A DNA stretch of 64,000 nt, taken from assembly GCA_965116885.1 (NCBI GenBank), contig OZ220741.1, positions 1,408,001-1,472,000 of the forward strand, read 5' to 3'. The position numbers were made by a program, and so were the translations under genes. This DNA comes from Candidatus Latescibacterota bacterium (GTDB taxonomy: Bacteria; Latescibacterota; UBA2968). Under the pieces are notes generated by a model, which was given only the letters and a program-made list of their open reading frames with translations, searched no databases and had not been told where the DNA came from. This document shows, one piece after another, positions 42,451 to 61,052 of the stretch; position 1 is the stretch's first letter; each line of letters opens with the position of its first letter.

Positions 42451-42557
42451 TAAATTTGTTGAAATAAAAAAAAGCACTTAAAAATGCTCAAGTGCTTGAA
42501 AAACAAAAAGATAAAATGTTTATGTTTTAAATTCTATAAGTTGTCGCTTTCTGTGAA

Positions 42558-42608: not shown

Positions 42609-42631
42609 CTCACAAGGTCACGTCCAATTTG

Positions 42632-43987
42632 CTAACGCATCTTTAGACGCTCCATCTTTTTTATTAACCCATCGCGGGTCAACCCCAATTCTTTAGCCGC
42701 ATGCGTGATATTGCCTGCGTGTTTCTTGAGCACATCCTGGATTATATGTTTTTCAAACACTGCGACTCTCGCTTTTAAATGGCCTTTAGTCTGTGTCTCT
42801 ATCCCCAGGCTACCCCCAATAGGCTTTGGGAACAAATCAGGCGTAATTTCACGACCTTCTTCTGACAGGGCAACGGCTCGCTCCATCACATGCATCAATT
42901 CCCGCACATTGCCTGGCCAGGTATATTCGCACAATACATCCATCGCCTCGGTGGAAATCCCTTGAACCACTTTTTCAGAGGTCTCGGCAAAGTCGTTCAA
43001 AAAGTGATGGGCAAGAAGTTGAATATCTCCATGCCGATCCCTGAGAGGTGGCAGGTGAATCTCAAAGGTGTTAAGTCGATAAAATAAATCTTCTCGAAAC
43101 CTGCCTGCTTCAATCAATGCCTCGATATTCTGATTGGTCGCTGAGATGAGACGGATGTTGATCTCTATCTCCTTATTGCTTCCCAGCCTGCGAATTTTGT
43201 GATCTTCCAAAACCCGCAAGAACTTCACTTGAAGGGGCATGGGCAATTCCCCGATTTCATCGAGAAAAAATGTCCCACCCTTCGCGTGTTCGATTAACCC
43301 GACGCGGTTCTGTTTCGCATCTGTGAATGCCCCCTTTGTATGGCCAAATATCTCACTTTCAATTAGAGGCTCTGGCAAGCCCCCGCAGTTGAGCGGCACA
43401 AACGGCTTATGGCTGCGCTTGCTATTTGCATGAATACACTGGGCCACCAGTTCTTTTCCTGTTCCGCTCTCCCCTGTGATCAGGACATTGGCAGGTGTAT
43501 TACTGATTTTTCGCATCAAATCAAATACCTGAGAGATTGCCTCACTATTCCCGATGATGTTTTCGTACCGAAACCGCGTATCCAGCATTTCCTTTAAAGC
43601 TATGTTCTCCTCCCTCACATGTCGCAGTTTCAATGCCCGTTCTATTACGATTAAAAATGCATCTGGATCAAATGGTTTCCGAACAAAGTCGAACGCGCCT
43701 GCTCTGATCGCTTTCACTGCACTCTCAATGGTTCCATATCCGGTAAAGACGATTACAACAGCCTCTTGATCGCGTGCCATAATGCTTTCAAGTACAGCCA
43801 TCCCGTCCATTCCGGGCATTTTTAAATCCACTATGACCAGATCGGGGTTTTCAGTCTCGAATAACGCGAGACCCGCCTCACCCGAATCTGTCACGACAAC
43901 AGCGTACCCTGCTGTCTCCAGAAACTTCTGGCAACCGCGCAACATATCCGGTTCGTCATCTATTACGAGGATCTTATCTTTTTGCAT
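42632..43987 (-). CDS. Sigma54-dependent response regulator (copy A)
   Basis: REC (DLKMP), GESGTGKE, GAFTDA, FLDEIG, WPGNVREL, HTH. Confidence 0.95.
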   Translation of the reverse strand: MQKDKILVIDDEPDMLRGCQKFLETAGYAVVVTDSGEAGLALFETENPDLVIVDLKMPGMDGMAVLESIMARDQEAVVIVFTGYGTIESAVKAIRAGAFDFVRKPFDPDAFLIVIERALKLRHVREENIALKEMLDTRFRYENIIGNSEAISQVFDLMRKISNTPANVLITGESGTGKELVAQCIHANSKRSHKPFVPLNCGGLPEPLIESEIFGHTKGAFTDAKQNRVGLIEHAKGGTFFLDEIGELPMPLQVKFLRVLEDHKIRRLGSNKEIEINIRLISATNQNIEALIEAGRFREDLFYRLNTFEIHLPPLRDRHGDIQLLAHHFLNDFAETSEKVVQGISTEAMDVLCEYTWPGNVRELMHVMERAVALSEEGREITPDLFPKPIGGSLGIETQTKGHLKARVAVFEKHIIQDVLKKHAGNITHAAKELGLTRDGLIKKMERLKMR

Positions 43988-43992
43988 ATCTC

Positions 43993-45144
43993 TTACTCTG
44001 TTATGGGAAGATAAATCTGGAACTCACTGCCTTTGTCCGGTTGACTCCTCACTTCAATTCGGCCTCCATGCTCTTGAATTAAACCATAACTGACCGAAAG
44101 ACCCAGGCCGGTTCCTTCCCCCACTTCTTTGGTTGTAAAAAAAGGATCAAATAGATGGCTGAGATGTTCTTCCTCAATGCCTGTGCCTGTATCTCTTATC
44201 CGGACCACCACCCAATCTCGATCTGTTTGGTCTGTCTCCAGTGTCGTTGATACGGTCAGAACACCGCCATCGGGCATCGCTTCAATCGCATTGTTAAACA
44301 GATTCAACAACACCTGCTCAATGCGTATGGGATCCAAAAACACTTTGGGCAAACTGTCTGCCAATTCGGCTTGATACACAATGTCCTGATTTTGCAGCGT
44401 ATTTTCAACCAGTCTCGAGGCAGTATGCACGGTCTGGTTGACATTGATCCAGTCAGGGCTGAAAGATCCCTGCCTGGAAAAAGCCTGTAGCCCCGATATG
44501 ATCTGCCCGATCTTATTGTTCTGGCGTTGAATGACCCTTAGTGTCTCGATCAGGTCTTCTGGCAATTTTTGACTTTCGATATTTTGCATCACATTGGCGA
44601 TATGGAGTTTGATAATGCTCACGGGGTTGTTCACCTCATGTGCAATCCCGCTAATCAATCTACCCACGGCTGCGAGTTTGGTTGATTGTACCAATTGCTC
44701 CTCCAAAAGTATGCGCTCTGTCATGTCGCGGATAATGCCAGCAAATAATCGCTTGTCTTTTAAGGGTACCTCACTGACAGCCAGATCCATTGGAAATTCA
44801 GTTCCATCTTTACGCAGGCCGTTCACTTGACGTCCTGCTCCGATAATTTTGGGCACGCCGGTTTTGAGATATCTACCGATATAGCCATCGTGTTCACTCT
44901 GGTAAGGCTCGGGCATCAGCATGTTGACCTTGTTTCCGATAACTTCCTCAGCCCGGTAGCCGAATATCTTCTCGGCAGCGGAATTGAATGTTTGTACAAT
45001 CCCCTGAGTGTCAATCGTAATAATCGCGTCAACAGTCGTTTCCAGGATCGCCTTGTAATGGCTTGCCGCCTCCTCAAGTGCTGTGAGCCTACCTGCCGTC
45101 GCACTGGCAGGGATTTGGTCTCTGTGCTCGCTTTGCGTGTTCAT
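43993..45144 (-). CDS. Soluble PAS histidine kinase with FixL-like heme-PAS domain
   Basis: LMPEPYQSEHDGYIGRYL.TG..KIIG.GR PAS; AHEVNNP, NLFNNA, DTGTG, FFTTK, GTGLGL; start MNTQSE. Confidence 0.92.
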   Translation of the reverse strand: MNTQSEHRDQIPASATAGRLTALEEAASHYKAILETTVDAIITIDTQGIVQTFNSAAEKIFGYRAEEVIGNKVNMLMPEPYQSEHDGYIGRYLKTGVPKIIGAGRQVNGLRKDGTEFPMDLAVSEVPLKDKRLFAGIIRDMTERILLEEQLVQSTKLAAVGRLISGIAHEVNNPVSIIKLHIANVMQNIESQKLPEDLIETLRVIQRQNNKIGQIISGLQAFSRQGSFSPDWINVNQTVHTASRLVENTLQNQDIVYQAELADSLPKVFLDPIRIEQVLLNLFNNAIEAMPDGGVLTVSTTLETDQTDRDWVVVRIRDTGTGIEEEHLSHLFDPFFTTKEVGEGTGLGLSVSYGLIQEHGGRIEVRSQPDKGSEFQIYLPITE

Positions 45145-45249
45145 CGTACCACCTCGAGATTCTGGTCTCATCAGGACGGCTATATTTTGTCTTGAATTGT
45201 GGGGCATTACATGATATGCTTATTTTGCGGAAGAAAAAATAAAAATAAA

Positions 45250-45596: not shown

Positions 45597-46943
45597 CTAT
45601 AATTTAAAGACGTGATCTTTCTTTCCCGATACAACCTGCGTGGCATTGCGCGTATCGACAATATAGCGCGCGTGCTTTACTATCCATTCATAATCCCAAT
45701 CGCTGTGATGGGTCACAATCACCACACAATGGGCTTCTGTTATATTTTTTTTATTCAAAGAGGTACTCTTCAAGTCCAAACTTTCTGTCTGCAAGTGATC
45801 TACAAACGGATCGCAATACGAGACTTTCGCCCCTTTCTCCTGAAGCATTTCTATAATATCCAATGCCGGCGACTCGCGAATATCGCGTACATCGGGTTTG
45901 TACGTCACGCCCAATATCAGGATGTTCGCGCTCTTCAAACACCGCTCGTATTCGTTGAGTGCGTCGGTGATTTTTTCGACCACATAGCCCGGCATGCTGC
46001 GCGTCACTTCGCTGGCCAATTCGATAAAGCGCGCATTGTAATTTAAGGTCTTGAGCTTCCAGGCCAGAAAGTGAGGATCAACTGGAATACAATGCCCGCC
46101 CAACCCAGGACCGGGATAAAACGGCATAAACCCAAACGGCTTGGTCGCTGCGGCATCGATTACTTCCCAAACATCCACCCTTAGCCGGTCACACATCAGG
46201 GCCACTTCATTGACGAGGCCGATATTTACACTGCGAAAAGTATTTTCGAGCAACTTGGTCATTTCAGCAGCCTGGGTCGATGAGACCGGTACGACTTCGC
46301 CGATCAATTGTCGGTAAAAATGCGTGCCTATTTCTGTGCAAGACGGGGTAATACCCCCCACGACTTTGGGCGTATTGGTGATGGTATAAACTTTATTGCC
46401 CGGATCGACGCGCTCTGGAGAAAATACCAGAAAAAAATCTCGACCAACTTTCAAGCCACTTTCTTCGAGCAGGGGCAATACCAGTTCATGGGTCGTACCT
46501 GGATACGTCGTGCTCTCCAAAATCACCAGTTGTCCGCAGCGCAGTCGGTCTTTGATTGCATCACATGCTTGTACAATAAATGAGACATCCGGATCGCGTG
46601 CTTTATTCAAGGGTGTGGGCACACATACCACGACCACATCGGCTTCATTGAGCACATTGAATTCTTGTGTTGCTGTCAGTTTTCCCACAGCTTTAAGACT
46701 TGTCACCTCAAATTCCGATACACCCTGCACATCGGACTTTCCCGATTCTACTATCTTTACTTTGCGGGCGGATGTATCGATTCCCGTGGTGGAAAATCCC
46801 GCCTTACCTAATGCCACAGATAAAGGCAATCCCACATACCCCAATCCCATCACTGCCACCTGTGCCTCGTGTGACGCGATCTTCTCCTCCAGAATCTGTC
46901 TGGAATCGACGCTTCCCCAGGGTAATCTTTCTGTCAGGGCCAT
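45597..46943 (-). CDS. UDP-N-acetylhexosamine 6-dehydrogenase (WecC/WbpA family)
   Basis: GLGYVGLP, CVPTP, LESTTYPG, SPERVDPG, KLLENTFR, GPGLGGHCIPVDP. Confidence 0.93.
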   Translation of the reverse strand: MALTERLPWGSVDSRQILEEKIASHEAQVAVMGLGYVGLPLSVALGKAGFSTTGIDTSARKVKIVESGKSDVQGVSEFEVTSLKAVGKLTATQEFNVLNEADVVVVCVPTPLNKARDPDVSFIVQACDAIKDRLRCGQLVILESTTYPGTTHELVLPLLEESGLKVGRDFFLVFSPERVDPGNKVYTITNTPKVVGGITPSCTEIGTHFYRQLIGEVVPVSSTQAAEMTKLLENTFRSVNIGLVNEVALMCDRLRVDVWEVIDAAATKPFGFMPFYPGPGLGGHCIPVDPHFLAWKLKTLNYNARFIELASEVTRSMPGYVVEKITDALNEYERCLKSANILILGVTYKPDVRDIRESPALDIIEMLQEKGAKVSYCDPFVDHLQTESLDLKSTSLNKKNITEAHCVVIVTHHSDWDYEWIVKHARYIVDTRNATQVVSGKKDHVFKL

Positions 46944-46988: not shown

Positions 46989-48095
46989 TTAACTTTTTAA
47001 TTCAGCAACGATTCGCTCTGCGGCATTGCCATCCCACAACTCAGGTAAGCGACCAGATTTATAGTGCCCATTCAAAACAGATTCAGCCTTTGCGACAATG
47101 CGTTCGGGACAAACGCCCACCAGTGTGTTCGTCCCAATATCTATAGTCTCTGGTCGTTCTGTATTCTCTCTAAGCGTCAAACACGACACACCCAAAGCCG
47201 TCGTCTCTTCTTGCAATCCCCCTGAATCTGTCATCACAAATTTTGCATTCTTCTGAAGTTTCAAAGAATCGAGATAGCCCACCGGATCCATAAGTTTGAT
47301 ATGGTCCATCATCTCAAGCTTTTGCAAAAAACCGAATCCGGACAGGCGATTGCGGGTTCTCGGATGCAAAGGCCACGCGATGGGACATTTGAGGGCTTGC
47401 AACGCGGATGCAATACCAGCCAACGTATCTGAACAATCGACATTTGAGGCGCGATGGAGGGTTAGAAAAACGTATTCTCGAATCGATAAACCGTGTATGT
47501 CCAGAATGCGGGATTCATCGGCTTTGGGGGATAGCAACATCAGAGAATCTATCATCACATTGCCCACAAAATGAATGCGGCTCTCTTCTATGCCTTCGCG
47601 CCTCAGATTTTCACATGCCTGCATTGAAGGTGCAAACAGAAGATCGGATATAGCATCCACCACAATTCGATTGATCTCTTCGGGCATTGACCGATCCCAA
47701 CTTCGCAACCCCGCCTCTATGTGTCCAACGGGAATTTGCAATTTCGCGGCATCCATCGCACAGGCTAAAGTGGAATTTACGTCACCGACGACAAGCACCC
47801 AATCTGGTTTTTCCGACAATAAAACCTCCTCAAAGCCCATCATGATCTGCGCTGTCTGGTGCGCGTGACTGCCCGACCCCACATTCAATTCATAATGCGG
47901 TCTGGGTAGATTTAAGTCTCGAAAGAAAATATCGGACATCAGATCATCGTAGTGTTGTCCCGTATGGACCAGAATCGGCTCAAACCAATCGGGTGTCTCG
48001 GTCAGTTGATTCCACAGCGGGGCAACTTTCATAAAATTGGGTCGCGCACCTGCAACAAGGATAATTTTCACCTGTGTTCTCCTCAATGGTGTCAT
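46989..48095 (-). CDS. wecB: UDP-GlcNAc 2-epimerase (non-hydrolysing)
   Basis: GARPNFMK, HTGQHY, GDVNST, HIEAGLRS, MPEEINR, TDSGGLQEE, TERPE. Confidence 0.95.
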   Translation of the reverse strand: MTPLRRTQVKIILVAGARPNFMKVAPLWNQLTETPDWFEPILVHTGQHYDDLMSDIFFRDLNLPRPHYELNVGSGSHAHQTAQIMMGFEEVLLSEKPDWVLVVGDVNSTLACAMDAAKLQIPVGHIEAGLRSWDRSMPEEINRIVVDAISDLLFAPSMQACENLRREGIEESRIHFVGNVMIDSLMLLSPKADESRILDIHGLSIREYVFLTLHRASNVDCSDTLAGIASALQALKCPIAWPLHPRTRNRLSGFGFLQKLEMMDHIKLMDPVGYLDSLKLQKNAKFVMTDSGGLQEETTALGVSCLTLRENTERPETIDIGTNTLVGVCPERIVAKAESVLNGHYKSGRLPELWDGNAAERIVAELKS

Positions 48096-49282
48096 TTATT
48101 TAACACACGATTATAGATGTCAAGCCACTGTGCTGTTTCTTGAGTTGGAGAAAATTGGTTTTCCACTTTATGTTTTGCGGTCTTCCCAAGCCTTTTTCTC
48201 AGTTCTGTATCCTCAAGTAATAGTTGCAATTTTTGGGATAACATATTGGCGTCACCAGAGGCAACAAGAAGGCAATCCCTATTATCTTCAACTATATCAA
48301 GAATACCACCAACTTGAGAGGCCACAATGGGCAGTTCGCAGGCCATCGCCTCCAAGAGTGCATTTGGTGAACCTTCATGAAGCGAAGGGAAGGCAAAAAT
48401 ATCCATCTCCCTCATCCACGCCATCACTTCTCGATGTGGAATATAACCCGTAAATACAATGTGCCTTTTTATCCCCAGATCACTGATCTGCTGCAACATA
48501 TCTCTTTTATAGGATTCTTGTGCAAACTGACCTACAACGAGCAAATAAGAATCGGGATAAACTTTAACAATCTCTCCAAATGCCTGTAAGAGAATGTGAA
48601 ACCCCTTTATAGGCCGCAAAAATCCAGCAGTTCCAATGACTGTGCCACCTTGTGATTTCATCCGTAAAAAGGTTTCAGTAAGTACTTGCAGTCTATTATT
48701 ATGCTCTCCTGTTATTTCTGGCAGTGCGCGTACATCAAATATTGACACATCAAAAACATTGGGGATGACCTTTCCTGCTTTGATGCTTACCGTTCGACGC
48801 ATTTTTTGCATGAGTTCAGATGATACTGACGTTACATAATCGGCCCGTTCTAATACCCACCTTAGATTTGCTAAGTGTTGGATGCTATAGCGCAAGACTT
48901 CCCAATCGCTACCTCGAACACTGGCGATGAAAGGTCGCTCAATTTCAGCAGCCACGACTGCACCTAAAAAGCCAGGAGGCATAAGAAAAGCTGCATGAAC
49001 CAGGTCAAAACGCTGTTTCTGATGGAGTTTTACAATGTAGTTACCAAGCACCTGTAAACCATGCGGATCAGCATGATAATCTGATAATATTGAAAAAGTC
49101 CGATGTACTGTCACCCCATCTTCTACGACAGGTGAAATTTTATCTCTTAATTGATGGGGACCCGGCGCAATAATATGGATATTGACATCCCTTTTTGCCA
49201 GATTCTGGGCAATCCGATAAATTGCACTTCCCACTCCTCCTGGGTATGGTGGATATTGGTAGGTAACCAAGCAGATGTTCAT
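48092..49282 (-). CDS. GT4 glycosyltransferase
   Basis: PYPGGVG, KGF, PSLHEGSPNALLEAMA (E-x7-E). Confidence 0.92.
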   Translation of the reverse strand: MNICLVTYQYPPYPGGVGSAIYRIAQNLAKRDVNIHIIAPGPHQLRDKISPVVEDGVTVHRTFSILSDYHADPHGLQVLGNYIVKLHQKQRFDLVHAAFLMPPGFLGAVVAAEIERPFIASVRGSDWEVLRYSIQHLANLRWVLERADYVTSVSSELMQKMRRTVSIKAGKVIPNVFDVSIFDVRALPEITGEHNNRLQVLTETFLRMKSQGGTVIGTAGFLRPIKGFHILLQAFGEIVKVYPDSYLLVVGQFAQESYKRDMLQQISDLGIKRHIVFTGYIPHREVMAWMREMDIFAFPSLHEGSPNALLEAMACELPIVASQVGGILDIVEDNRDCLLVASGDANMLSQKLQLLLEDTELRKRLGKTAKHKVENQFSPTQETAQWLDIYNRVLNK

Positions 49283-49292: not shown

Positions 49293-50600
49293 TCAGTGTA
49301 TGCCTGGTGTTCTTGGCTTTCGTATCACCAGCAGGCCCCATCGCACTATTGTCTTAGTTGATCTCATCAGCCTTTTCATCATTCGATATATAGCAAAACT
49401 TAACATCAAGATGAGTAGAGAAGGAAAAAAGAACCTTGACAGGGCACTCCCAATATTTTTCCAATCTCCAGCGGCAAAGCCGCTTATTATCTCGCTAAAA
49501 GTCTTATATACAAGACCGGGATAGTTTGAAATCAAATCGGGAAAGAGAAAAAAAATCTTGTAAAAGAACAAGACGAAGAAGCTGGCACTGACAATTCCAT
49601 ACACGCAGAGAAACGATTTTATCTTCCCACTGATGCGTAAAAAAATAGGTTCAGCAATCTCTCTCTCTCTTAAAATGAAACGCTTGACAAAGTATTTCAG
49701 AATTTCTAAAGATCTTTTTCTGAGATTTGGCACGCCTGCTATATCTGAAAAAAGCCAATACCCATCAAATCGGAAAATTGGATTCAAGTTAAACAGTGCT
49801 GACCCGTAGTTAAAAAGAATCAAAAATAAAAACACGCTACTTGCTGTCGTCAGATACAGTATGAAGAGTATAGGAATAAAAATAAGCTGAAAATATATAC
49901 CTCCGAAATCCACCATCGCACGTTGCATTCTCGGTAGCCTCCAGGCATCCGTTACATTAGAATAAAGAACGGGAAAGCGCAGATACAATCCTATCCCAAT
50001 CTCTCCGGGTGACGCGCCATAATAAGCACAAGCTGAAGCATGACCTAACTCGTGGAAAATCCCTAAAACACCAAAAATTATCAGCGTTAGAATCGTATCT
50101 TGAAACGAAATATCATAAATAGTAAAGTCTATGACTTGGAGTTGAAAAAAATAGAAATACCCAAAAAAGACAAAAGAGAAAAAAATAAAAGAGATCAAAA
50201 TTTTTGGATAAAAAAGAGTCTTGAGAATATTACTAACGGCATGAACCGCATTCGCCCGCATAAAAGGGTATTGAAAATAAAAATACGAATTGCTTGTTTG
50301 AGCATCTACATCTGAGGTTGTATTTTCAAGGATTCCGTAGGGTTTTAGAAATGAATGGATAATTGCAGCAATGTCTTTGGCAGAGTATGTCTTATTCCTG
50401 ATAGAAGAGTATGCGCTTGCAATTTCAGACAGCGTTTTTTTGCCGTCTATCAACTCGATGATTTGATAGACACCCTCGCTTATTTCAAACCGTTTCGTGC
50501 CTATGCACAAAACATAACTTTCCTCTACTAAAGCGGTATCGAATTTATACATAGAGATTTTCGGAACCAACTTAATCGGATCTGGTAGGGATTCTTGCAT
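49293..50600 (-). CDS. M50-type membrane zinc peptidase with N-terminal PqqD/RRE-like domain
   Basis: HELGH, NLNPIFRFDGY, TM helices; N-terminal IIELIDGKKTLSEIA typical of PqqD-like RREs. Confidence 0.82.
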   Translation of the reverse strand: MQESLPDPIKLVPKISMYKFDTALVEESYVLCIGTKRFEISEGVYQIIELIDGKKTLSEIASAYSSIRNKTYSAKDIAAIIHSFLKPYGILENTTSDVDAQTSNSYFYFQYPFMRANAVHAVSNILKTLFYPKILISFIFFSFVFFGYFYFFQLQVIDFTIYDISFQDTILTLIIFGVLGIFHELGHASACAYYGASPGEIGIGLYLRFPVLYSNVTDAWRLPRMQRAMVDFGGIYFQLIFIPILFILYLTTASSVFLFLILFNYGSALFNLNPIFRFDGYWLFSDIAGVPNLRKRSLEILKYFVKRFILREREIAEPIFLRISGKIKSFLCVYGIVSASFFVLFFYKIFFLFPDLISNYPGLVYKTFSEIISGFAAGDWKNIGSALSRFFFPSLLILMLSFAIYRMMKRLMRSTKTIVRWGLLVIRKPRTPGIH

Positions 50601-50750: not shown

Positions 50751-51752
50751 CTAAGGGTTTTCGGTTTCCATTACAAGTTTACTCACTCGATCAATTTCTT
50801 GCTCCTTATGTTTTTGCAGATTGCGGAGCAAAACGGACATTTCAGATATGCTATGGTCAATCGCAATCTCCCAGTCCGTGCAGGGTACCTGATGAACATA
50901 AGACAATGCCTGTCTATAGCAATCTATTGCATGATCGAGAATTTCTTCTGCCAGCCCTGTAAAGTAAATCATACGCGCAAGTTCTTCCAGGGTAACGGAT
51001 TCTAATTTTTCGTGAAGCTCCTTTCTGTCAATGATTTGAGACAAAAGGTACGAATATCTGCCAGCGATAAAGTCATCTCTCCAATTTTTAAGATCATTAT
51101 GAAATTGTAAGCCCGTAAAAAAGGCATCTAAGGATTTTTCAAGAAGACGGATCAATTCCGGTGAGTCAGACAAACAGGCTAAAGCAGTTGTCACCATCTG
51201 GATTGTGGCGGCTTTACCAGAGGCAATATCAAACGCCTCATCCAATGAATAAAATGTGGGATTATTCCATTTTGTTCTTTCTTGTAGTGTTGCAGCAATG
51301 GCGCGACGCTGATACTTTTTGGCAAAGGCCCAAAAATCCGAACCTGGGGGGAATAAGTCATTGAGAAGACCAAACGCATGATCTCTCAAAAGAGAAGCAA
51401 AAAAATAGGCATCTACTTTGAGAGTCTCCCGCTCATCAAAAACATCATCCATATACGATGTGTAGATGTATAATGACCGATTGACAAAATACAATTTCTG
51501 CTGTGTGTCTTCGTCCAGGACAAATACCTCCGAGAACTGCGATGTAAAGGAAGTATGTACATCAGTGGATAGAAATACGGGATATTGTTTTAGGGCAGCC
51601 TCCAGATCATATTCTTCACATATCTGAGACATAAATTGATAAAATTCGACTTCGGATTTTTTGATTGAGATATCATCTTGAAGACCAAAGTTCAGTGAAG
51701 CAATTTCATCCTCAATAGAGGCAAAGGGGTCTGATGGCAAATGTGTATTCAT
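50751..51752 (-). CDS. Class I isoprenoid-synthase-fold protein (candidate ComQ-like peptide prenyltransferase)
   Basis: DDVFD (DDxxD), SGKAA, GLQFHNDLKNWRDD second metal motif. Confidence 0.7.
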   Translation of the reverse strand: MNTHLPSDPFASIEDEIASLNFGLQDDISIKKSEVEFYQFMSQICEEYDLEAALKQYPVFLSTDVHTSFTSQFSEVFVLDEDTQQKLYFVNRSLYIYTSYMDDVFDERETLKVDAYFFASLLRDHAFGLLNDLFPPGSDFWAFAKKYQRRAIAATLQERTKWNNPTFYSLDEAFDIASGKAATIQMVTTALACLSDSPELIRLLEKSLDAFFTGLQFHNDLKNWRDDFIAGRYSYLLSQIIDRKELHEKLESVTLEELARMIYFTGLAEEILDHAIDCYRQALSYVHQVPCTDWEIAIDHSISEMSVLLRNLQKHKEQEIDRVSKLVMETENP

Positions 51753-51809: not shown

Positions 51810-54440
51810 CTACTGCAGGGATATTGAATCACCATTGACAGGCGCGTGACTATGCTGACGTGTCTCCTTGAGGAGTGTATTATTCCCCAAAAGATTGGTG
51901 CAGCCCGAAAGGCTATCAATAAATGAAAGCGTCTGTTCTGTACCATTTAGGTTAAGCTCGTGGGTAAGAGATTTTTGATGGGATAAATGCTGCATAATAC
52001 TGTCTGCGACGCTATCAGGCGTCAGGTCAACCGGATCAATTTTCTTTACCAGTCCCAAATCGGACAGCCTACTTGCTCTGATATCTTGATCTTCAGAGAG
52101 TAAACTCGGTACAAGGAGTGCTGGAGTACTGGTTTCCAGAATATTGACACAAGTATTGTAACCCGCCCGGCTGATTACAAGATTGGCTGCCTGCATCCAT
52201 TGAAGAAAATCAGGTGTATATCGCCTTATATAGAACGGGCCCATTTCACACATTCGTTCCAAAGTCTCGTATTGGTCATCATTGATAAACGGGCCAGGAA
52301 ATATGACCATTTTCCAACCATCCATCTTTCCCTGTTTATGCAGCAATTTCCAGGCTTTGATACAAGGCACAATAAGCTCGTAACCGTCAACACCACCACC
52401 TGCGCTAACCATCACAAAGTTCTCTATGTTCTCATCTGGTTTTCTACATATCCCGTCATGCGGCTTTTCAGAGACATATCCAGTATATACAATCGGTATG
52501 ACAATATCTTCTATCCAGGGGAAATATTCTTTTAGTTGGGTCACGCTCGGATCTCCATGAACAAGCAAGGCATCAAAGTAAGCATTTAATGTCGGACAAA
52601 CTTCCTCATAGTATCTTTTAGCTTTATATAGGTCCTGGTCTTGAGGGGTCAGGAGGTCAGGTCTTTCTACATTAATACTCGAATGAGGCTTAAAAATATC
52701 AGCCGTTCTCGCCCGTAGCGGAATATCGCGCAAAGAGCAGATGATATGAATATCCGGAATTTTTGATTTAACCATTCCCAACAGGTATTGTAATTCTGGG
52801 CGTAGCTTCCATCGACCAAAGGGAAAATGTTCAATCATAATTACATCTGGCTGGATGTCTGTAACCGTCTCTGTCAATTTAATTAGCCTTTTCTCGAAAG
52901 TCTCCCGGATACCTTGATCCTCGTCTTCAGAGGCTAATCCCTCCGGCGTAAGTGAAATAGGCATTAATTGGATTAAATTAATGGATCCCTGCATTTTGAA
53001 ATCGGGAATTGGGCGTCCCCCATTCACAAAGTGAACGTCGTAATTTTGGGATAGTTCACGAGCGATTTGAAGGTTGCGAAAGTGATGGCCCATGCCAACG
53101 AGATGCTGGCTATACAGGATGATACGCTTCCTGCGGGATCTTGATAGTGGCTTGGATGCCCGATGTCGTTTTCCCTGGGTCGCGTGCTTGTATATGGGTT
53201 CATAATTTGCCACTACTTGCTGCCAATCTTTGTGTTCCGAAATCCACTGTCGTGCCCGATGCCCAAGTTCCGCTCTAAGTTGTGTATCTTCAATTAAAGC
53301 CGAGCATTTCTGCGCGAGATTCTCTGGATCATCAGCATTACATATACGCCCCGTCGTGCCGTCATCTATAATTTCCCGAAGCGCAGCCACATCGCTGACA
53401 ATGACGGCTTTTCCCATTGCCATGGCTTCATACGGCTTAATAGGGGTCACCAATTCCGTTACGCGGCTTCGTACTCTGGGTATGACAAAAATATCAATCA
53501 AGGCATAATAGTCGAAAACATCTTCGTGTGGTACCTGTCCTGTAAAGTGTACAACCGAGTCTAAACCCAATTCTGTTGCAAGCCGCTGAAGTGGTTCTAC
53601 CTCATCTCCACCACCAACAATGAGAATTTTAATCTGAGGATGACGAGATAGGAGCATTTTTCCTGCTTTGAGAAGCCAACGAAGACCTTCAAGTTTTCTG
53701 ATTGAACCAATATGTCCGATGGTTACGCTATCGGAACCAAGCCCTAATCGCTCTGCCAAATGGGTTGGGTACGGTCTCGGTGTAAATTTCGATGTATCTA
53801 CACCATTGGGAACAATGAAAATTTTGTCTTCAGGAATCCCTTCTCGGATAAACTCCTCTTTCATTGTTTCAGCCAATGTGACGACCTGATCGGCTCGTTT
53901 CATGGCCTCTACAAACAAAAAGTGTCGGTGCTGATATGCTTTTGAAGAAGTATCAAGGGTTCCTGCAACCACGCCCGTTTCATGCCATAATCCGCGCACT
54001 TCATAGATCACAGGTAGGTTGTATTTGTGTCCGACTTTAGCTGATATTAATGCATTCTGGGCAGGAGAAGCAACATGGATCACCTCGGGTTTGTGAACTT
54101 CGACAACACGAGAAATATGATTCTGAAACTGCCGTTGCAATCCCTCACGATGTAATGCAGCAGAATATCGTGTCTGACGAAAACCAAGGTCATGGAAATG
54201 TTGATCAAGCAATGCCTGGGTCATGTCGTTCAAGTACAATACCCCATCCAGATACTCCTCTTCAACAAGAAATTTACTGTCTATAAGATGAGTGTCTTTG
54301 AAGCGGGTTGCTACAATAGGTTCAAGCCCTATTCTACTCTGGGTATCAAAGATATATTTGCTTCTGATTGTGTAACCCGCCTGTCGAGATCGCAGAGAAT
54401 AATCCAAAACATGTAGGACCTTCATAACTAAACCTTTCAT
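51810..54440 (-). CDS. Fused double glycosyltransferase (GT4 + GT28-C-like)
   Basis: N-half GYTIRS, YEVRGLW, VTPIKPYEAMA; C-half YSQHLVGMGH, EHFPFGR, SAGGG, SRAGYNT, EDQDIRA. Confidence 0.88.
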   Translation of the reverse strand: MKGLVMKVLHVLDYSLRSRQAGYTIRSKYIFDTQSRIGLEPIVATRFKDTHLIDSKFLVEEEYLDGVLYLNDMTQALLDQHFHDLGFRQTRYSAALHREGLQRQFQNHISRVVEVHKPEVIHVASPAQNALISAKVGHKYNLPVIYEVRGLWHETGVVAGTLDTSSKAYQHRHFLFVEAMKRADQVVTLAETMKEEFIREGIPEDKIFIVPNGVDTSKFTPRPYPTHLAERLGLGSDSVTIGHIGSIRKLEGLRWLLKAGKMLLSRHPQIKILIVGGGDEVEPLQRLATELGLDSVVHFTGQVPHEDVFDYYALIDIFVIPRVRSRVTELVTPIKPYEAMAMGKAVIVSDVAALREIIDDGTTGRICNADDPENLAQKCSALIEDTQLRAELGHRARQWISEHKDWQQVVANYEPIYKHATQGKRHRASKPLSRSRRKRIILYSQHLVGMGHHFRNLQIARELSQNYDVHFVNGGRPIPDFKMQGSINLIQLMPISLTPEGLASEDEDQGIRETFEKRLIKLTETVTDIQPDVIMIEHFPFGRWKLRPELQYLLGMVKSKIPDIHIICSLRDIPLRARTADIFKPHSSINVERPDLLTPQDQDLYKAKRYYEEVCPTLNAYFDALLVHGDPSVTQLKEYFPWIEDIVIPIVYTGYVSEKPHDGICRKPDENIENFVMVSAGGGVDGYELIVPCIKAWKLLHKQGKMDGWKMVIFPGPFINDDQYETLERMCEMGPFYIRRYTPDFLQWMQAANLVISRAGYNTCVNILETSTPALLVPSLLSEDQDIRASRLSDLGLVKKIDPVDLTPDSVADSIMQHLSHQKSLTHELNLNGTEQTLSFIDSLSGCTNLLGNNTLLKETRQHSHAPVNGDSISLQ

Positions 54441-54565: not shown

Positions 54566-57500
54566 TTATGGCGCGAAAGGGTGGCGTGGTGTGATTTTAT
54601 CCACAAAACGCCATCGTACCGCATCGGCATACAAGGTCCCCTTTGCGCGGTCAGACAATTCGACTACAGCCTCTACTCCCTCGACAAATTTGTATCGCCC
54701 CAGGTGATTCCAGCCCGCTTTCATAAGATCGCGCTCCATTTCAAGCGTATCGACCTTATCCGCGTGAAAAACAGTAAGTGTAAAGGTCGTACCAATGCCC
54801 TCGCGCCTGGCTATTGCGGGATCGGGAAAATAGAAGCCCACATCAAACTCGCCATCTCTGGGGATTCGCGCGGCCCACACAGCCGGCTGTGCGCCATCGC
54901 CCGGTTTCTTTTGCCGATAATTTTTTGTATACCGCCCATAAGCTGTCGGCAGGCTACGCTCGCGCCAGTTGCCCCCTTCAAGACCGGGACGAGAGTAGCG
55001 CGTCGTTCGCCGAATCGGCATTGAAAATCCCTTGTCGTCATTATCTACAATGATCTCAAAAGGCCCCATATCTGCACGGATTACATCCCCTTCTCCTGTC
55101 ACATCTTTGAGATAGGCCATGGGAGTCCCCCCTGTAACCTGTTCAGGAACGCGCACAGGAGAGATAAGCGGTTGGCGATTGCGTGCAAAAAAGGGTTCGA
55201 CGATCACCCGCAAGGGTTGCTCCCACAGCACCATCGAAACTTCGATTTCCTGACCGCCTTCAATCTCTACGCCCTTTACTGCCTCATCATTTTGACCAAT
55301 GGCCGTGATTTGCACATAGCCCCTGCCGGGTTCGCTATTCTTAATGCGCACAATCAGTTGGTAAACTAGCGTTCCGGAGCCATCGTCTACCTTCAAGGCT
55401 TTTACACTTGTCAATTTATAGCCCGGGATTTCCGTGCTATATATCCAATCTTTAACCAGACGCTGTAATCTCTGGCGATTTTCATCTTCGGTGTAGCCTG
55501 CGGCGGCACGTTCAAAGGTCGAAAAATCGATGTCCTTGTATTTGTAATTCTGGCTAATGTCGGCCAAGAAGGTGCGGAATGTTTCTTCACCCAAAAAGGA
55601 GGCGAACATCCCAAAGAGTGCAGGCCCCTTGGCGTCGAGAGCCTGGCGATAAAGGTCCGCCTCCTGTTCGGGATCTAAATCGGCAAATGACTTGCCCTGC
55701 ATCTCGGCAATCAGCTTGTTCCAAGCTCTCGTTTTTCTTCTGCTTATAAACGCCGCCTCGCGCGCCCTGTCACTGTTGCGTCGTTGGCTTGGGTAAAAAG
55801 CGGCTGTTAGATCGGTTCTCAAGTCATTCTGTAGATACATGGGCAGACCCTTTTTAAGCAGGGCATAATGGTCGCCCACAAACTGCTTGTCATAAGCCCA
55901 GAGTTGAAAAACAGGGCTACGAAACAGTCCATTGGATTTTATTGCCGCGTTTTCTTCAGAAAAAAAAGTTGAAAAAATGGCGCGTATCAAAATATCCTTT
56001 TTAACATTTTTGGGATCTTGATTCGATTGCTTTTGTTTCTTTTGGATAACCACCTGCCGCAAGAGCACATCTTCTTCAATCATCAACACGCCCGGCTGTG
56101 TCAGGCCGCCCTTTTCTTCCCAGCCTTCGTAATACCACTGAATATGGAACGGAACTTCCACCAGTGAAAGGCTCGGATAGGGATATTTCATGCCAGATTC
56201 CTGTTCCATGAGATCCACGATTTGCCCGAGCGCACGCACAATCTCTTTTTTTGCACCTTCAAAAAATTTAATCGGACGCAGATGTGAAGGATGCACGTAA
56301 AGGGCACATTCGATGTCGTGAATGGTGGCGCGATACACGCGATATACACCAGCATTGAGCGATAGGACAGGCACGGGATTTTCAACAACCCATTGGCGGG
56401 TCACTTGTGTGCCGAGGGTATCGGTCTTGCCGATCTGCCCCTGGGTAATGACTTCGAGACCTTTGGGAAATGTGATATGCAAGTTGGCCGTTGAAAAAGA
56501 GACCGGGCGCGCATTTTTATAGCCATAATCAACGCCCGTGACGGGATACCAGCGGCTTCGCGGCGGCAAAAAGATGGACTTGTCGCGAATCCACGCCGTC
56601 AAAGAGCCACTGTACCCCTTATCTTTCCGCAACCTCGGTTTGCCTTTTTCTCGCTTGAGATCAAAACCATCCGTGTTAATATCACCCGCATATGCTAACG
56701 TCAGATCGAGTTTTTGTTCCGATTGCAGGGGGGTAGTGGGCACGACACTAATCACGCTTTCCGTCCGCTCCCATGCTATTGCTCTGCCATCAGCGTGCGT
56801 CAGACTTTGGATTTTGAATCCGGGATTGAGTGAAAGAATCAACGTATCGAGCGGGGATTCGTGAGGATTTCTCAAGCTAATCGTGCCAGAGGTTGTAAGT
56901 AGCTCCTCTCCCAAAAGCGTCAATGCCAGATCGTAATGGGTGATTTCCGCTACGGAAATATGTGCAATCGCTTCCTGCTGCGCGAGCAAGGACTGGCGAT
57001 ACGCTTGCCTATTTCGAGCTTCCGCATCCACATAAAAGTAAAGACCAGCAGCCAATCCAAAACCGGTCAACGCACATCCCCAGCCAAACCACCGCGCAGT
57101 CGCAGAATGTGCAAGACGGGGATATCGATCAATCGCAAATCCCAAAAAACTTATGCCGAGCAAAATGTAAAACACGCGTTGCAAACCCACTTGCGTCATA
57201 TTCCCTATGCCCATCAGGTCCGAATAATCCATGTGGGTCGCAAGAGAAATGAAATCGAAGAGGTCGGGATATTGTTTGCCCAGATATAATATCACAGCGA
57301 GCGAATACGCTGTTGCGACCAAGGCAGCCGCTATTGGACGACGCAGCAAGACGCCTAAAAAAAATGTCAGAGAAGACATAAAAACCAAGGCGGGTAGGTT
57401 CAAGAGCACGAGGTATAAAATATAAGGTTTGACTGTCAGTGGATTGCCCGTCATGCTGATCGTTGCTGCCTGAAGGCCCAGAGTCAAAAACAGGATCCCA

Positions 57501-57856
57501 AGGCTAAAAAAGAAAAGCGCGCTAACCGTGCCCAGATACTTACCCGCAACCAGTTCTGCCGTTGAAATAGGACGCCCGGCAACTACTTCATAAATGTGGG
57601 CATTTTCGTCAGCCGCTCTAAAAGACCCCGCCATAAATGGAATGACAAGGGTTTGAAATAAAGTGTATATAAGAAAAAGAAAGTAAGATTCTTTTCCCGG
57701 AGGCATTCCAAATTCAGTATCTATGGCAAGACGAATGCCGTAATAAACGAAAATGCCCAAGGGGAAGATGCCCAAAATGCGAAATTTTGTAGTTCTCAAA
57801 AGCATTTTGCGCTCATAGCGTGCAACACCAAGTATATTGTTGAGAATAGAGAACAT
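54566..57856 (-). CDS. ABC permease fused to degenerate M1-aminopeptidase-like domain and C-terminal beta-sandwich
   Basis: N-terminal TM block (RPISTAELVAGK); LNPG, WYP, YPY..L.LVEVP M1 scaffold without HExxH; GWNHLG...ADAVRW tail; start MFSILN with AGGAG SD. Confidence 0.75.
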   Translation of the reverse strand: MFSILNNILGVARYERKMLLRTTKFRILGIFPLGIFVYYGIRLAIDTEFGMPPGKESYFLFLIYTLFQTLVIPFMAGSFRAADENAHIYEVVAGRPISTAELVAGKYLGTVSALFFFSLGILFLTLGLQAATISMTGNPLTVKPYILYLVLLNLPALVFMSSLTFFLGVLLRRPIAAALVATAYSLAVILYLGKQYPDLFDFISLATHMDYSDLMGIGNMTQVGLQRVFYILLGISFLGFAIDRYPRLAHSATARWFGWGCALTGFGLAAGLYFYVDAEARNRQAYRQSLLAQQEAIAHISVAEITHYDLALTLLGEELLTTSGTISLRNPHESPLDTLILSLNPGFKIQSLTHADGRAIAWERTESVISVVPTTPLQSEQKLDLTLAYAGDINTDGFDLKREKGKPRLRKDKGYSGSLTAWIRDKSIFLPPRSRWYPVTGVDYGYKNARPVSFSTANLHITFPKGLEVITQGQIGKTDTLGTQVTRQWVVENPVPVLSLNAGVYRVYRATIHDIECALYVHPSHLRPIKFFEGAKKEIVRALGQIVDLMEQESGMKYPYPSLSLVEVPFHIQWYYEGWEEKGGLTQPGVLMIEEDVLLRQVVIQKKQKQSNQDPKNVKKDILIRAIFSTFFSEENAAIKSNGLFRSPVFQLWAYDKQFVGDHYALLKKGLPMYLQNDLRTDLTAAFYPSQRRNSDRAREAAFISRRKTRAWNKLIAEMQGKSFADLDPEQEADLYRQALDAKGPALFGMFASFLGEETFRTFLADISQNYKYKDIDFSTFERAAAGYTEDENRQRLQRLVKDWIYSTEIPGYKLTSVKALKVDDGSGTLVYQLIVRIKNSEPGRGYVQITAIGQNDEAVKGVEIEGGQEIEVSMVLWEQPLRVIVEPFFARNRQPLISPVRVPEQVTGGTPMAYLKDVTGEGDVIRADMGPFEIIVDNDDKGFSMPIRRTTRYSRPGLEGGNWRERSLPTAYGRYTKNYRQKKPGDGAQPAVWAARIPRDGEFDVGFYFPDPAIARREGIGTTFTLTVFHADKVDTLEMERDLMKAGWNHLGRYKFVEGVEAVVELSDRAKGTLYADAVRWRFVDKITPRHPFAP

Positions 57857-57933
57857 GGGATTACTCCTGTTTAAGCGATCAGCTTTCAGCCTCTCCCTCC
57901 ACATCTAAAGGCGAGAAGCGAGCCTTGTTTTCT

Positions 57934-58833
57934 TCATCCCGCGATTTCATCAGCGGTGTTGCTGCCCATAAAATAGAGATATGCATCTTCGAGATTGGGT
58001 GCGACCACTTTGGCATCAGCGGGTGGCTCGCCATCGCCCACCATCCGAACACTCAGGCGATCACCTTCAACATTGACCGTCACCACATGAAACACACGCG
58101 ACAGCTTTTCAAAGTGAGGCTCATCAACACGTATTTGCCACGTCTTGCCATCGGCCTTTGAAATGAGGTCTGATGGAGAGCCGCGAAAGATCAGTTGTCC
58201 ACGATTCAAAATCGCGAGATACTTGCAAGTGCTCGAAATATCACCCACAATATGCGTAGAGATCAAAATTACACGATCGCTGCTCAAGCGACCTAAAATG
58301 CCTCGAAACCGGATGCGTTCTTCCGGGTCAAGCCCCACAGTCGGTTCATCGACAATCAGAAAACCTGGATCGGTCAAAATGGCCTGTGCAATGCCAAGAC
58401 GCCGTATCATGCCACCGGAAAACGTACCCGTGCGCCGCTTGCGTGCATCGTACAACCGGACTTCATTCAATGCTTGTTCAACACGCGCCAAACGCTCGCT
58501 CTTATTGTGGATGCCACCCAAAACAGCCATATAATCAAGAAATTCCCAGGCGGTTAGTTGTCGATAGGTGCCAAAATTTTGTGGCAAATATCCAAGGCGT
58601 CGGCGAATTTCTGTGCGGTCTTTTACCAGATCGAACTCATCCATGGTCACGCTGCCACTCGATGAGTCCATTTGGGTCGATAAAATTTTAATCAGTGTTG
58701 TTTTGCCCGCGCCATTGGGTCCCAGTAGGCCAAATGTTCCGTGAGGAATGCTCAAGGTGATATCGTCCAGGGCAGGCGCATCGCCGCGCCGATATGTTTT
58801 TGTCAGGTTTGAGATGCGAATGACCATCAGCAT
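57934..58833 (-). CDS. ABC transporter ATP-binding subunit
   Basis: GPNGAGKT, FSGGM, IVDEPT, STH. Confidence 0.95.
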   Translation of the reverse strand: MLMVIRISNLTKTYRRGDAPALDDITLSIPHGTFGLLGPNGAGKTTLIKILSTQMDSSSGSVTMDEFDLVKDRTEIRRRLGYLPQNFGTYRQLTAWEFLDYMAVLGGIHNKSERLARVEQALNEVRLYDARKRRTGTFSGGMIRRLGIAQAILTDPGFLIVDEPTVGLDPEERIRFRGILGRLSSDRVILISTHIVGDISSTCKYLAILNRGQLIFRGSPSDLISKADGKTWQIRVDEPHFEKLSRVFHVVTVNVEGDRLSVRMVGDGEPPADAKVVAPNLEDAYLYFMGSNTADEIAG

Positions 58834-59013: not shown

Positions 59014-59250
59014 TTAGCTGTCGATCGTGCAGTCGTGTTCTCCACAAGAGCCTCCGCCGATGTCTTTTCCACAGTCATGCCACAGACAAAAGCCATCATC
59101 ATCATCCGTGGTGCAGTCATGAGTGATGCACCACATTTCCAACCTTTCTTCAAGCGCATCAACGACCAGATCCTCATAGAGTTCAGGATACGACGCGATG
59201 TGTGCTTTGAGTTCAATCTCTGAAGAGATGTGAGCAGACAAATTAGCCAT
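59014..59250 (-). CDS. Putative RiPP precursor peptide (39-aa leader + 39-aa Cys/His/Asp core)
   Basis: AGGAGG SD 8 nt upstream; directly after the rSAM gene; core WCITHDCTTDDDDG FCLWHDCGKDIGGG SCGEHDCTIDS. Confidence 0.85.
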   Translation of the reverse strand: MANLSAHISSEIELKAHIASYPELYEDLVVDALEERLEMWCITHDCTTDDDDGFCLWHDCGKDIGGGSCGEHDCTIDS

Positions 59251-59345: not shown

Positions 59346-61052
59346 CTATAAAGTTTGTTGTTTGTACTCCTCAAATACCTCAGGCACGACCGTATGGAAA
59401 ACCTTGGGATACTCATCGCAATAGGACGTTTTGATATTGCCATCATTTTTTACATAAGCATGTGCAGCACATCCACCGCCACAAAAGAATGCATATTTGC
59501 ACTTACTGCAAGATGGCACATTAGAAATATTCCGATCATACCATTCTGATAAATGTTCATCATTGAATTCAACTTTATCCAAATAATTTCCAACTTTGTA
59601 CCGGTCTACACCCACCAATTCCCAACACGTATAGAGGTCTCCATAAGGATCAAGGATCAACATACCGTTCTGTGCGCCACAGAAGATGGGCCTAAAACTT
59701 AATAGCCCTTTACCATCAAGAGCTCGCTTGAAGGTCTGTCTAATGCCAGCATCTTGGCAAGAAATTTGGTGCATTAAGTCGGGATTTTCTTTTACAAACT
59801 GATAGTATTTGCGAGTAAACTCTCTTCTTGGCATCACCGAAACTTCTCCATTTTCAGAACGTACGGATTCCATTTCAAGCACAATGGGGCTTGTGCCTTT
59901 GCGGTAGTTCGAAAAAATTTCTTCCTCTCGTTCCACATCGATATATTGCTCTTCATCTATGTACACTCCAGGATCAAAAATTTCCTGTTCCTGGGGCTCA
60001 TTGTCCTTGAAAGATATGACAGAGGCAACAGACTCGGAGGGTTCAGAATCTGATGTTGGTGCTTCAATTGAAATAAGAGGTGCCGTCTGACCATAATTGC
60101 CTGGCGTCTTTTTACCAGACATTGTAGCACTACACGACATGCCTTCTTCAATCTGATGTACCAAGGCAGAATAGGCCGAAAATTTCGGATACTCTGTAAA
60201 TCCTCTATCTTTGAACAAATCAAATAATGCAGGTAAAATATCCACATTGTCGTAATCTGTATTGATTCGCATTGAAACTTGCACATCAAGCGACAGAGCA
60301 AGTGCCACATTTTTCATGATCGCACCAAAACTATCTCCTGCACGATAATGTGGACGCTTGCGATTGTGATTTTCTTCTTCGCCATCTAAGGTAATCTGGA
60401 GGCGTCTGATTTTTTGGGGACCTAATAAATCCGTGAAATGATGAAGGTCATAGCCATTTGTAATCGCAGAAAAGATGTAATCGCGTTTCAAACCTTCATC
60501 TACAATATACCGCACGATCGCTTTATTTTTTGCTAACAAAGGTTCTCCCCCATACAGAGTAATGTTCTTGCTATGCATGGCTCTGTTGGGTTGAATTTCG
60601 CACATGGCCTGGTATGCCCGGTCAACCATCTCCTTTGTAAAGACTTGCTTTGACCAGCCCTTGCCATGAGATGAAATGTCATTTTCAAAACAATAAGGAC
60701 AGCGGAAGTTGCAATCGTAGGCCACCAAGAATAAGAAAGATGCAGAGCTTTGGCTTGAGTTGTGGTGGAGAAAATTCGCCATGCTATGCACGTATTCTCG
60801 TTCTTCCACAGGAGAACGACTGGTCAGATAGCCACGCTTCATTAAGGTTTGGATCGTTTCTTTTGAACAAGGCAGTTCATCAAACATATCTTCCGAGAGA
60901 ACAACCTTGCTTTTGATCATCTGAGCGACTTTTTTATTTACTCTATCTATTGCGCCTGTATAGCCATGAACGAGCAAAGTGTAATCTGGATCTTCAGGCA
61001 GCTTGACACAAATCGTATAGGACGATACGCGATATAATTCTGAATTTGCCAT
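59346..61052 (-). CDS. Radical SAM/SPASM peptide maturase
   Basis: CNFRCPYC, YGGEPLL, ITNG, QITLDG; SPASM CGA...DPYGDLYTC...CSKCKYAFFCGGGC...C; N-terminal RRE-like region. Confidence 0.93.
   Translation of the reverse strand: MANSELYRVSSYTICVKLPEDPDYTLLVHGYTGAIDRVNKKVAQMIKSKVVLSEDMFDELPCSKETIQTLMKRGYLTSRSPVEEREYVHSMANFLHHNSSQSSASFLFLVAYDCNFRCPYCFENDISSHGKGWSKQVFTKEMVDRAYQAMCEIQPNRAMHSKNITLYGGEPLLAKNKAIVRYIVDEGLKRDYIFSAITNGYDLHHFTDLLGPQKIRRLQITLDGEEENHNRKRPHYRAGDSFGAIMKNVALALSLDVQVSMRINTDYDNVDILPALFDLFKDRGFTEYPKFSAYSALVHQIEEGMSCSATMSGKKTPGNYGQTAPLISIEAPTSDSEPSESVASVISFKDNEPQEQEIFDPGVYIDEEQYIDVEREEEIFSNYRKGTSPIVLEMESVRSENGEVSVMPRREFTRKYYQFVKENPDLMHQISCQDAGIRQTFKRALDGKGLLSFRPIFCGAQNGMLILDPYGDLYTCWELVGVDRYKVGNYLDKVEFNDEHLSEWYDRNISNVPSCSKCKYAFFCGGGCAAHAYVKNDGNIKTSYCDEYPKVFHTVVPEVFEEYKQQTL

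Follow-up and report, generated by a model that had tools for sequence, protein, structure and literature searches.

The gene at 50751..51752 on the minus strand of the window (the whole 64,000-nucleotide stretch of Latescibacterota DNA analysed here) is a real ORF of 333 aa, and its product is best read as a standalone trans-IDS-fold peptide prenyltransferase that would place a linear prenyl group on Trp40 of a neighbouring precursor peptide, a reading to which we assign a probability of about one half. Trp40 prenylation is favoured because the protein possesses the Asp pair of the first Asp-rich motif (FARM), a Gln at position 216 and an N-D second motif like that of ComQ and StheQ. The gene belongs to a minus-strand run that comprises, in order, the following genes, given here with the residues that figure in the argument:

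59346..61052, minus strand: radical SAM/SPASM peptide maturase; best NCBIfam matches are the CefB, geopeptide and PapB maturases, all below cut-off
59014..59250, minus strand: precursor peptide of 78 aa; from the alignment, an acidic leader ending in ERLEM and a core with 6 Cys, Trp40 and Trp57 but no Tyr
59131..59133, minus strand: Trp40, first residue past the leader motif and proposed acceptor
59080..59082, minus strand: Trp57, second Trp of the core sequence
57934..58833, minus strand: ABC transporter ATPase (Pfam), variable among clusters
54566..57904, minus strand: ABC-2 permease/M1-like large membrane protein (weak Pfam matches), variable among clusters
51810..54440, minus strand: GT4-GT28 glycosyltransferase fusion, a variable tailoring gene found in the window and locus L001 and absent from L002 and L003
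50751..51752, minus strand: candidate peptide prenyltransferase, standalone trans-IDS-fold protein of 333 aa (from fold, homologues and dN/dS)
51435..51449, minus strand: first Asp-rich motif DDVFD, residues 102-106, donor/Mg site by analogy; Asp102 is conserved in 97% and Asp106 in 99% of distant homologues
51213..51215, minus strand: Lys180 of the GK motif, 90% conserved in the family
51072..51107, minus strand: Gln216 and the second motif N219-D220-x-x-N223-W224-x-x-D227, aligned to the family form Q-x-x-DDxxDWxxD
49293..50600, minus strand: RRE-fused M50 intramembrane peptidase (HELGH); matches daptide_HExxH (E 9e-35) and PqqD (E 0.004), both below cut-off
48092..49282, minus strand: GT4 glycosyltransferase conserved in the close clusters, with 80-85% identical orthologues in L001-L003
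46989..48095, minus strand: UDP-GlcNAc 2-epimerase (WecB), sugar supply (TIGR00236 above cut-off)
45597..46943, minus strand: nucleotide-sugar dehydrogenase, sugar supply (TIGR03026 above cut-off)

Searches with the single protein against Pfam, NCBIfam and PDB sequences returned nothing useful and no PF00348 match, and an Atlas search recovered clusters without names plus one with PF00348 on 47% of its members. The isoprenoid-synthase fold proposed in the first-pass annotation of this DNA was nevertheless borne out by structure comparison: the model predicted from a 100-sequence alignment (pLDDT 91.5) has the trans-prenyl diphosphate synthase 3n3d as its top match (Z 22.4, rmsd 2.9, 281 residues aligned; Foldseek probability 1.00), and it also matches the indole prenyltransferase Ord1 (Z 18.8, rmsd 3.8, 268 aligned) and MoeN5 (Z 18.4), with terpene cyclases at Z 14.5 or less. 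As modelled, the enzyme is an all-alpha protein of the trans-IDS fold with two facing acidic motifs. No ComQ structure was among the fold matches, which is compatible with kinship to ComQ; a fold in common by itself shows no function. Both acidic motifs named in the first-pass annotation, DDVFD and NDLKNWRDD, were located in the ORF, at residues 102-106 and 219-227 respectively (the latter at 51072-51098). In 20,000 shuffles of the protein, DDxxD alone was seen in 16.5% and the two motifs together in 0.25%; the real support comes from the fold and the conservation within the family.

The motifs of chain elongation and cyclisation are missing from this enzyme and nearly so from its relatives. 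As the first-pass annotation had it, no RRG follows the first Asp-rich motif: the residues that come next in the window enzyme are ERETLKVDAYFF, with neither RR nor RRG, and RRG is likewise lacking in 141/141 distant homologues (147 of the 149 listed were aligned, and motif counts are over 141 or 146). The GKxxR IPP site is absent from the window enzyme and present in 1/141 homologues, and the NSE/DTE motif occurs in 0/146. Elongation or cyclisation is unlikely because these three motifs are missing. That the protein yields a free isoprenoid, either as a polyprenyl diphosphate synthase of the chain-elongating kind or as a class I terpene cyclase, is very improbable; chain-elongating synthases do provide the top structural matches and 4/68 family members match PF00348 weakly, but sequence identity to these synthases is 10-16% and the genome already has two ordinary synthases elsewhere. 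Its two PF00348 and two PF00494 matches all lie outside the 64-kb window, in which no other polyprenyl synthase or squalene/phytoene synthase was found, in keeping with the earlier remark that no other terpene genes are nearby. SQHop_cyclase_C (PF13243) gave no match in this 98% complete genome. The search for class I terpene synthases, which gave no match in any control genome, was uninformative.

The enzyme has 22 close homologues at 65-93% identity, including three in GTDB records labelled Candidatus Latescibacterota, from the window's own genus, and one with the NCBI label Gemmatimonadetes; a contig from a run with the label sponge metagenome holds a 97%-identical copy (X6). An exhaustive search recovered 596 cluster representatives at E 0.001 or better. 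Among the 149 distant homologues listed, 88 are 480 aa or longer, and a scan of 25 long ones detected a squalene-hopene-cyclase domain in 19, a domain closest to MstE-like monodomain cyclases (E 3e-45). Judged by these sequences, the enzyme belongs to an uncatalogued family in which fusion to an MstE-like terpene cyclase is frequent; beyond the weak PF00348 matches, the alignment members have no NCBIfam or Pfam family in common, and a scan of viral contigs found no relative of the window enzyme. We infer that this is the family of the P domain of ChrPC, because the fused architecture of IDS and cyclase matches. The family form of the first motif is DxxxD, with a double Asp in just 13/141 distant homologues, while the second motif is DDxxDWxxD in 137/146, with Asn at its first position in 0/146; Gln216 is conserved in 86%. 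The residue five positions ahead of the FARM gave no information on chain length, with Tyr97 equally common in fused (22/76) and standalone (13/50) homologues.

The wider collection of loci also displays several architectures of interest in their own right. One set of loci (L020, L021, L022, L037, L039, L048, L057, L077) codes for one or two enzymes of 560-1040 aa with tandem prenyltransferase domains alongside arrays in which as many as 7 Cys-rich precursors differ greatly from one another. A second cyclase-free lineage (L019, L026, L028-L036, L073) combines the enzyme, an M50 peptidase and an unrelated GT4, about 20% identical to that of the window; its cores start with FCDW and its loci lack a radical SAM match, while L030 has a fatty acid desaturase upstream. 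Locus L062 (2035-10825) encodes two standalone enzymes, a separate cyclase, a radical SAM enzyme, two JmjC oxygenases and two Trp-less precursors ending in YYCYGD, making it a candidate for a Tyr-linked cyclised terpene. Nine divergent IDS-fold groups (L070, L074, L078, L079, L081, L083, L085, L087, L089) have DDxxDW without the GK motif, are devoid of all RiPP partner genes tested and probably constitute another subfamily; they remain inside the locus counts given below.

The gene-neighborhoods tie the family to precursor peptides. In all four close loci (the window and L001-L003), the radical SAM enzyme, precursor and prenyltransferase are followed by the RRE-M50 gene, directly downstream of the enzyme, and the orthologous GT4, with the other tailoring genes varying. 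We collected 80 metagenome loci by the pattern DD[LV][KR]DW[RK]xD, which collapse to 55 groups. Among the 32 dereplicated groups of at least 5 kb, 21 code for a peptide with the leader motif (counted with a profile built from these same loci), 18 for an M50 peptidase, 16 for a radical SAM enzyme and 22 for a cyclase; 11/32 have no LEERLE-type leader peptide. Two Hymenobacter plasmids combine the enzyme with an M50 peptidase and short Trp peptides in the absence of a radical SAM gene, and across 53 genomes of the order there are five radical SAM-plus-precursor clusters, four with the enzyme. The first-pass annotation had held that homologues unlinked to precursors would speak against peptide modification; that objection fails because precursors accompany the enzyme across loci and genomes, in 4/4 close loci and 21/32 wider loci.

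These contexts also bear on whether the acceptor might be a small molecule, with the enzyme acting on indole like Ord1 and XiaM or on a glycolipid like MoeN5, as a partner of the glycosyltransferases. The fold shared with Ord1 (Z 18.8) and MoeN5 (Z 18.4) would agree with such a role, as would the GT4 gene that comes after the peptidase in 4/4 close loci and, independently (~20% identity), in another standalone-enzyme lineage, and the co-clustered WecB and nucleotide-sugar dehydrogenase genes. We nonetheless regard it as quite unlikely: the frequent partners of the family are the precursor, peptidase and radical SAM enzyme, a GT4 match is absent from the standalone loci L008-L010 and L012, and the cluster showed no tailoring genes for indoles or terpenes.

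Within the cluster, the radical SAM enzyme is probably a Cys-Asp/Asn thioether cross-linker, as predicted from the core sequences. Such cross-linking fits since Asp or Asn is enriched three residues after the core Cys (57% of 167 positions vs 23% background), in line with the motif logic of PapB. The RRE-M50 peptidase, by analogy, probably removes the leader, as its daptide homologue MpaP is described to do (PMC10036551). A few features of the surroundings deserve mention. The cluster is flanked by two near-duplicate modules of sigma54 response regulator and PAS histidine kinase (42231-45207 and 61106-63517); near 42231-42383 there is an 80% copy of the 62-aa ORF at 61106-61294, and L002 has similar regulators at both sides. 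This pair possibly reflects insertion with duplication, or dedicated regulation. The 1112-aa permease/M1-like/golvesin-domain protein (54566-57904) has a 70% identical paralogue at genome position 4267227-4270577. Elsewhere in the window, a SIR2-like ORF (4812-6440) lies beside a Fic-like ORF (6578-7372), both recognized by eye from their N-terminal sequences and possibly defence genes.

We then consider the acceptor. The invariant elements of the precursor alignment are the leader end ERLEM and the first Cys, and the core would begin at Trp40 because conservation ends there. The first-pass annotation had described a core that starts with Trp and has a second Trp; both are present in the 78-aa precursor, with Trp40 straight after ERLEM and Trp57 as the second, but only 6 of the 23 sister precursors in the window's clade are Trp-first, another 6 having internal Trp alone and 11 none. 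Trp as a conserved feature of the clade's precursors is therefore not supported. In the wider family, peptides are found in 27/55 groups (one of these, L043, is cut by the contig end), and at least one peptide has Trp in 22 of the 27 (21 by script plus L053, whose Trp-bearing second peptide had been filtered out), often 1-4 residues past the leader.

With so many sister peptides free of Trp, the enzyme may have another target or be in decay. Under the first alternative most sister clusters would use Tyr as acceptor, and the window, with its Tyr-free core, would use His, Cys or the freed N-terminus. Ten of the 11 Trp-less sister precursors carry Tyr; the nearest outgroup precursors (L010, P0206, P0208) start with S/G-C-Y-I-N and lack Trp; Trp and Tyr swap at that core-start slot (P0191 vs P0202); and the wider groups L010, L012, L062 and L068 have no Trp, all with Tyr. 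Among the D-type members of the clade, moreover, the catalytic residues are well preserved, as in the L002 and L003 enzymes, which are paired with Trp-less precursors and retain the family Asp motif, Lys180 and Gln216. We still judge a non-Trp acceptor unlikely for the window enzyme. According to a 2026 review, all characterised trans-IDS-like peptide prenyltransferases target Trp (PMC13290415), and PalQ is described as rejecting other residues (PMC10853753); P0186 has neither Trp nor Tyr, whereas the window core has two Trp. Short contigs may also hide extra precursors, although L002, L003 and L010 have 10 kb on either side.

A related and bolder proposal, which we consider doubtful, is that some Latescibacterota IDS-fold enzymes accept residues other than Trp (Tyr, in D-D-type clusters) and that the window subclade may have switched to an N-terminal Trp via a ComQ-like Asp-to-Asn change. 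If true, these would be the first IDS-fold peptide prenyltransferases with an acceptor other than Trp, and would offer a natural specificity switch within a widespread uncatalogued class of cross-linked, prenylated, glycosylated RiPPs. The core bears Trp for 3/3 N-type enzymes with a linked precursor vs 2/6 D-type ones (p 0.17 among non-independent kin; of the nine pairings, four come from loci including the window and five from equal longest contigs, one of these with adjacent locus tags). A strict pairing of the N-type motif with Trp at +1 was rejected: the core of the N-type P0003 starts with Ser and has an internal Trp, and in the wider family Trp cores accompany most D-type enzymes as well.

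Returning to the enzyme, its second motif has Asn at both 219 and 223, a derived deviation from DDxxD that marks a subclade of 7 (support 0.996 in FastTree, 89 in UFBoot). Parallels come from characterised enzymes. ComQ depends on the Asp residues at FARM positions one and five and on the N-D of its pseudo-SARM (PMC5331326), its FARM being conserved and its SARM variable (PMC13731918). The active-site residues of StheQ are D85/D89, K174, which touches the diphosphate, Q212, N215, D216 and D219; activity falls by 98% in N215D and 83% in D219A, with Q212A losing 6% (bioRxiv 10.64898/2026.08.29.745113). PalQ D200A/D204A is still active (PMC10853753), while Ord1 Q216A retains 4% and D219A gives no product (PMC12510300). 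The window enzyme has Asn at both positions aligned to Ord1 D219 and StheQ D219. By sequence it has the residues that ComQ-type enzymes require, apparently by convergence, since the Asn arose within a DDxxD family.

The enzyme gene is under purifying selection, with a whole-gene dN/dS of 0.17-0.22 among four copies vs 0.15-0.25 for its neighbours. Nevertheless, the aligned sequences show what we read as relaxed constraint on the active-site residues of the window subclade. Ten family-conserved polar sites have undergone 8 changes in the N-type subclade (one of them restoring the Lys of the family; the mean over all sites is 0.53 per site) and 4 in the rest of the clade (two of them the Asn changes; all-site mean 1.70 per site). 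Extra substitutions at conserved sites occur in 5/7 N-type vs 2/14 other members (Fisher p 0.017, with non-independent kin), those of the N-type being D102R, E158K twice, K180N, Q216K twice and N219S. Clade-wide, there are the substitutions K185Q and P70T, the Lys at 185 (83% in the family) being Gln in 20/21 members.

These changes raise the second alternative, that the two Asp-to-Asn changes of the window subclade disabled catalysis, leaving a protein that either persists as a scaffold for leader binding or is in slow decay. Besides the excess change at polar sites and K185Q and P70T, the loss of the gene along with the peptidase in the complete sister genome G052 would accord with it. The window and L001 copies, on the other hand, have no extra active-site substitutions, and both go with Trp at +1; the N-D arrangement is the active configuration in ComQ and StheQ, and StheQ Q212A retains 94% activity (PMC5331326; bioRxiv 10.64898/2026.08.29.745113). 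Further, the whole-gene dN/dS is the same as for the neighbours, and some of the substitutions may be assembly errors in metagenomic proteins. We hold a relaxed copy to be unlikely.

The G052 cluster, the fifth of those in the order, has the radical SAM gene and two precursors but no match to the enzyme. One precursor is 70% identical to that of the window with both Trp lost, and the other keeps Trp at +1. Its GT4 gene is a hybrid: the first 360 residues are 62-90% identical to the window's GT4-GT28 and the end is 68% identical to the downstream GT4. The pattern suggests recombination between the two GT4 genes that removed enzyme and peptidase in one deletion, a reading based on these comparisons, the M50 search of G052 and G042 having been run without a positive control. 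By eye, the G052 cluster (L108; G052:C1:986000-1005999) also has Sel1-like repeat genes, and G042 preserves a cluster remnant (L109 9949-10274) with a truncated precursor leader, an ABC ATPase and a GT4 fragment, without a radical SAM gene. Several points count against Trp40 prenylation: just 6/23 sister precursors are Trp-first and 11 are Trp-less, some of these (L002, L003) beside enzymes with the catalytic residues kept; the N-type subclade has its excess of changes at conserved polar sites; Lys185 is lost in the clade; Asn stands where D219A impairs Ord1 and StheQ, though PalQ D200A/D204A is active; the enzyme is lacking in G052; and 11/32 wider loci are without a leader-motif peptide.

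The analysis establishes the fold, motifs, family, gene linkage and purifying selection. With Trp40 prenylation as the preferred reading, we infer the scheme that follows: catalysis itself, which residue accepts the prenyl group, how long the donor is, where the leader is cut, in what sequence the steps occur and what the other enzymes do. Mg bound at Asp102/Asp106 would activate an allylic diphosphate supplied by the ordinary prenyl synthases of the cell, and the Gln216/Asn219/Asp220 site would position the precursor indole, most likely that of Trp40. The prenyl tail would stay linear because there is no cyclase. The radical SAM enzyme would cross-link Cys to Asp, the glycosyltransferases might optionally add a sugar, and the RRE-M50 peptidase would take off the leader to give a cross-linked (glyco)lipopeptide. 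On this reading, an uncultured Latescibacterota lineage associated with sponges would produce a cross-linked glyco-lipopeptide.

The class of chemistry itself has been known since 2023-2024, and a simple Trp prenyltransferase without a cyclase would be a modest extension of what was reported then. What is new is a cyclase-free lineage with glycosyltransferases, the convergent ComQ-like motif and the many Trp-less precursors beside enzymes with catalytic residues kept. Literature searches on the leader motif and on the combination of Tyr, IDS and radical SAM found no description of this cluster type; the Hubrich papers and their supplements may already list it. There is demand for peptide prenyltransferases as tools for site-selective lipidation, and the clade offers close enzyme-precursor pairs (enzymes 65-93% identical) that differ in the second motif and the core Trp, which suits them to direct tests of acceptor specificity or of loss of catalysis.

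Among known systems, the chain-elongating synthases (PF00348) differ from the window enzyme in the RR(G) loop, GKxxR and PF00348 match that it lacks, and class I terpene cyclases in that NDLKNWRDD is without the S/T and E of NSE/DTE. Ord1/XiaM and MoeN5 are alike in fold, and the acceptor site of Ord1 has a Gln and an Asp one helical turn apart; they differ in having small-molecule acceptors and no precursor peptide, and are only ~11-14% identical to the window enzyme. The ranthipeptide maturases PapB and CefB and the daptide RRE-peptidase MpaP are the best profile matches of the neighbouring radical SAM enzyme and peptidase, and the Cys-x2/x3-Asp repeats of the core are a further likeness; all these matches are far below curated cut-offs and the cross-link chemistry is predicted. 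Ranthipeptide and RRE clusters have been reported by antiSMASH for sponge Latescibacterota, with prenylation unmentioned in the available part of that report (PMC12993501). Leader-dependent prenylation, for its part, has a precedent in another fold (PMC12715784).

The ChrPC-type prenyltransferase-cyclase RiPP maturases, reportedly described by Hubrich et al. in 2024 (doi 10.1016/j.chempr.2024.07.026), share with most distant homologues an N-terminal IDS fold, a class II MstE-like cyclase and a RiPP context, and the Gln before the second motif is found in the window enzyme too. In contrast to them, the window enzyme has no cyclase, either fused to its 333 aa or found in the genome (PF13243), has N-D-x-x-N in place of the family DDxxD with half of the sister precursors lacking Trp, and is paired with the radical SAM/SPASM enzyme, RRE-M50 peptidase and glycosyltransferases. 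The review PMC13290415 places the P domain of the fused ChrPC together with ComQ and PalQ among the trans-IDS-like Trp prenyltransferases, with a conserved Gln before the second motif, and the window enzyme agrees with these in Gln216, Asp102 and Asp106 (86%, 97% and 99% in the family). PalQ of Paenibacillus alvei is likewise a standalone trans-IDS-like peptide prenyltransferase with DxxxD pairs and a Gln (Gln197), and can geranylate an N-terminal Trp (PMC13290415); unlike the proposed activity, its own target is a C-terminal Trp in an NHLP precursor, and its cluster of three genes has neither a radical SAM enzyme nor an M50 peptidase.

As for ComQ (IPR033965) and StheQ, their target Trp lies elsewhere: ComX-type Trp sits 3-4 residues from the C-terminus, while the window precursor has Trp at 40 and 57 of 78, the target being at the start of a Cys-rich core behind an acidic RiPP leader. 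No ComP/ComA-type pair was identified beside the window cluster, the flanking regulators being sigma54-type. Of the ComQ-type assignment in the first-pass annotation, the N-D second motif with its upstream Gln stands, but the closest kin are by architecture ChrPC-type and not ComQ. The enzyme would nevertheless resemble ComQ in its workings, a resemblance short of identity with it, and shares with ComQ and StheQ the all-alpha IDS fold, the first and fifth FARM Asp, the N-D pseudo-SARM, the upstream Gln and a short adjoining Trp peptide.
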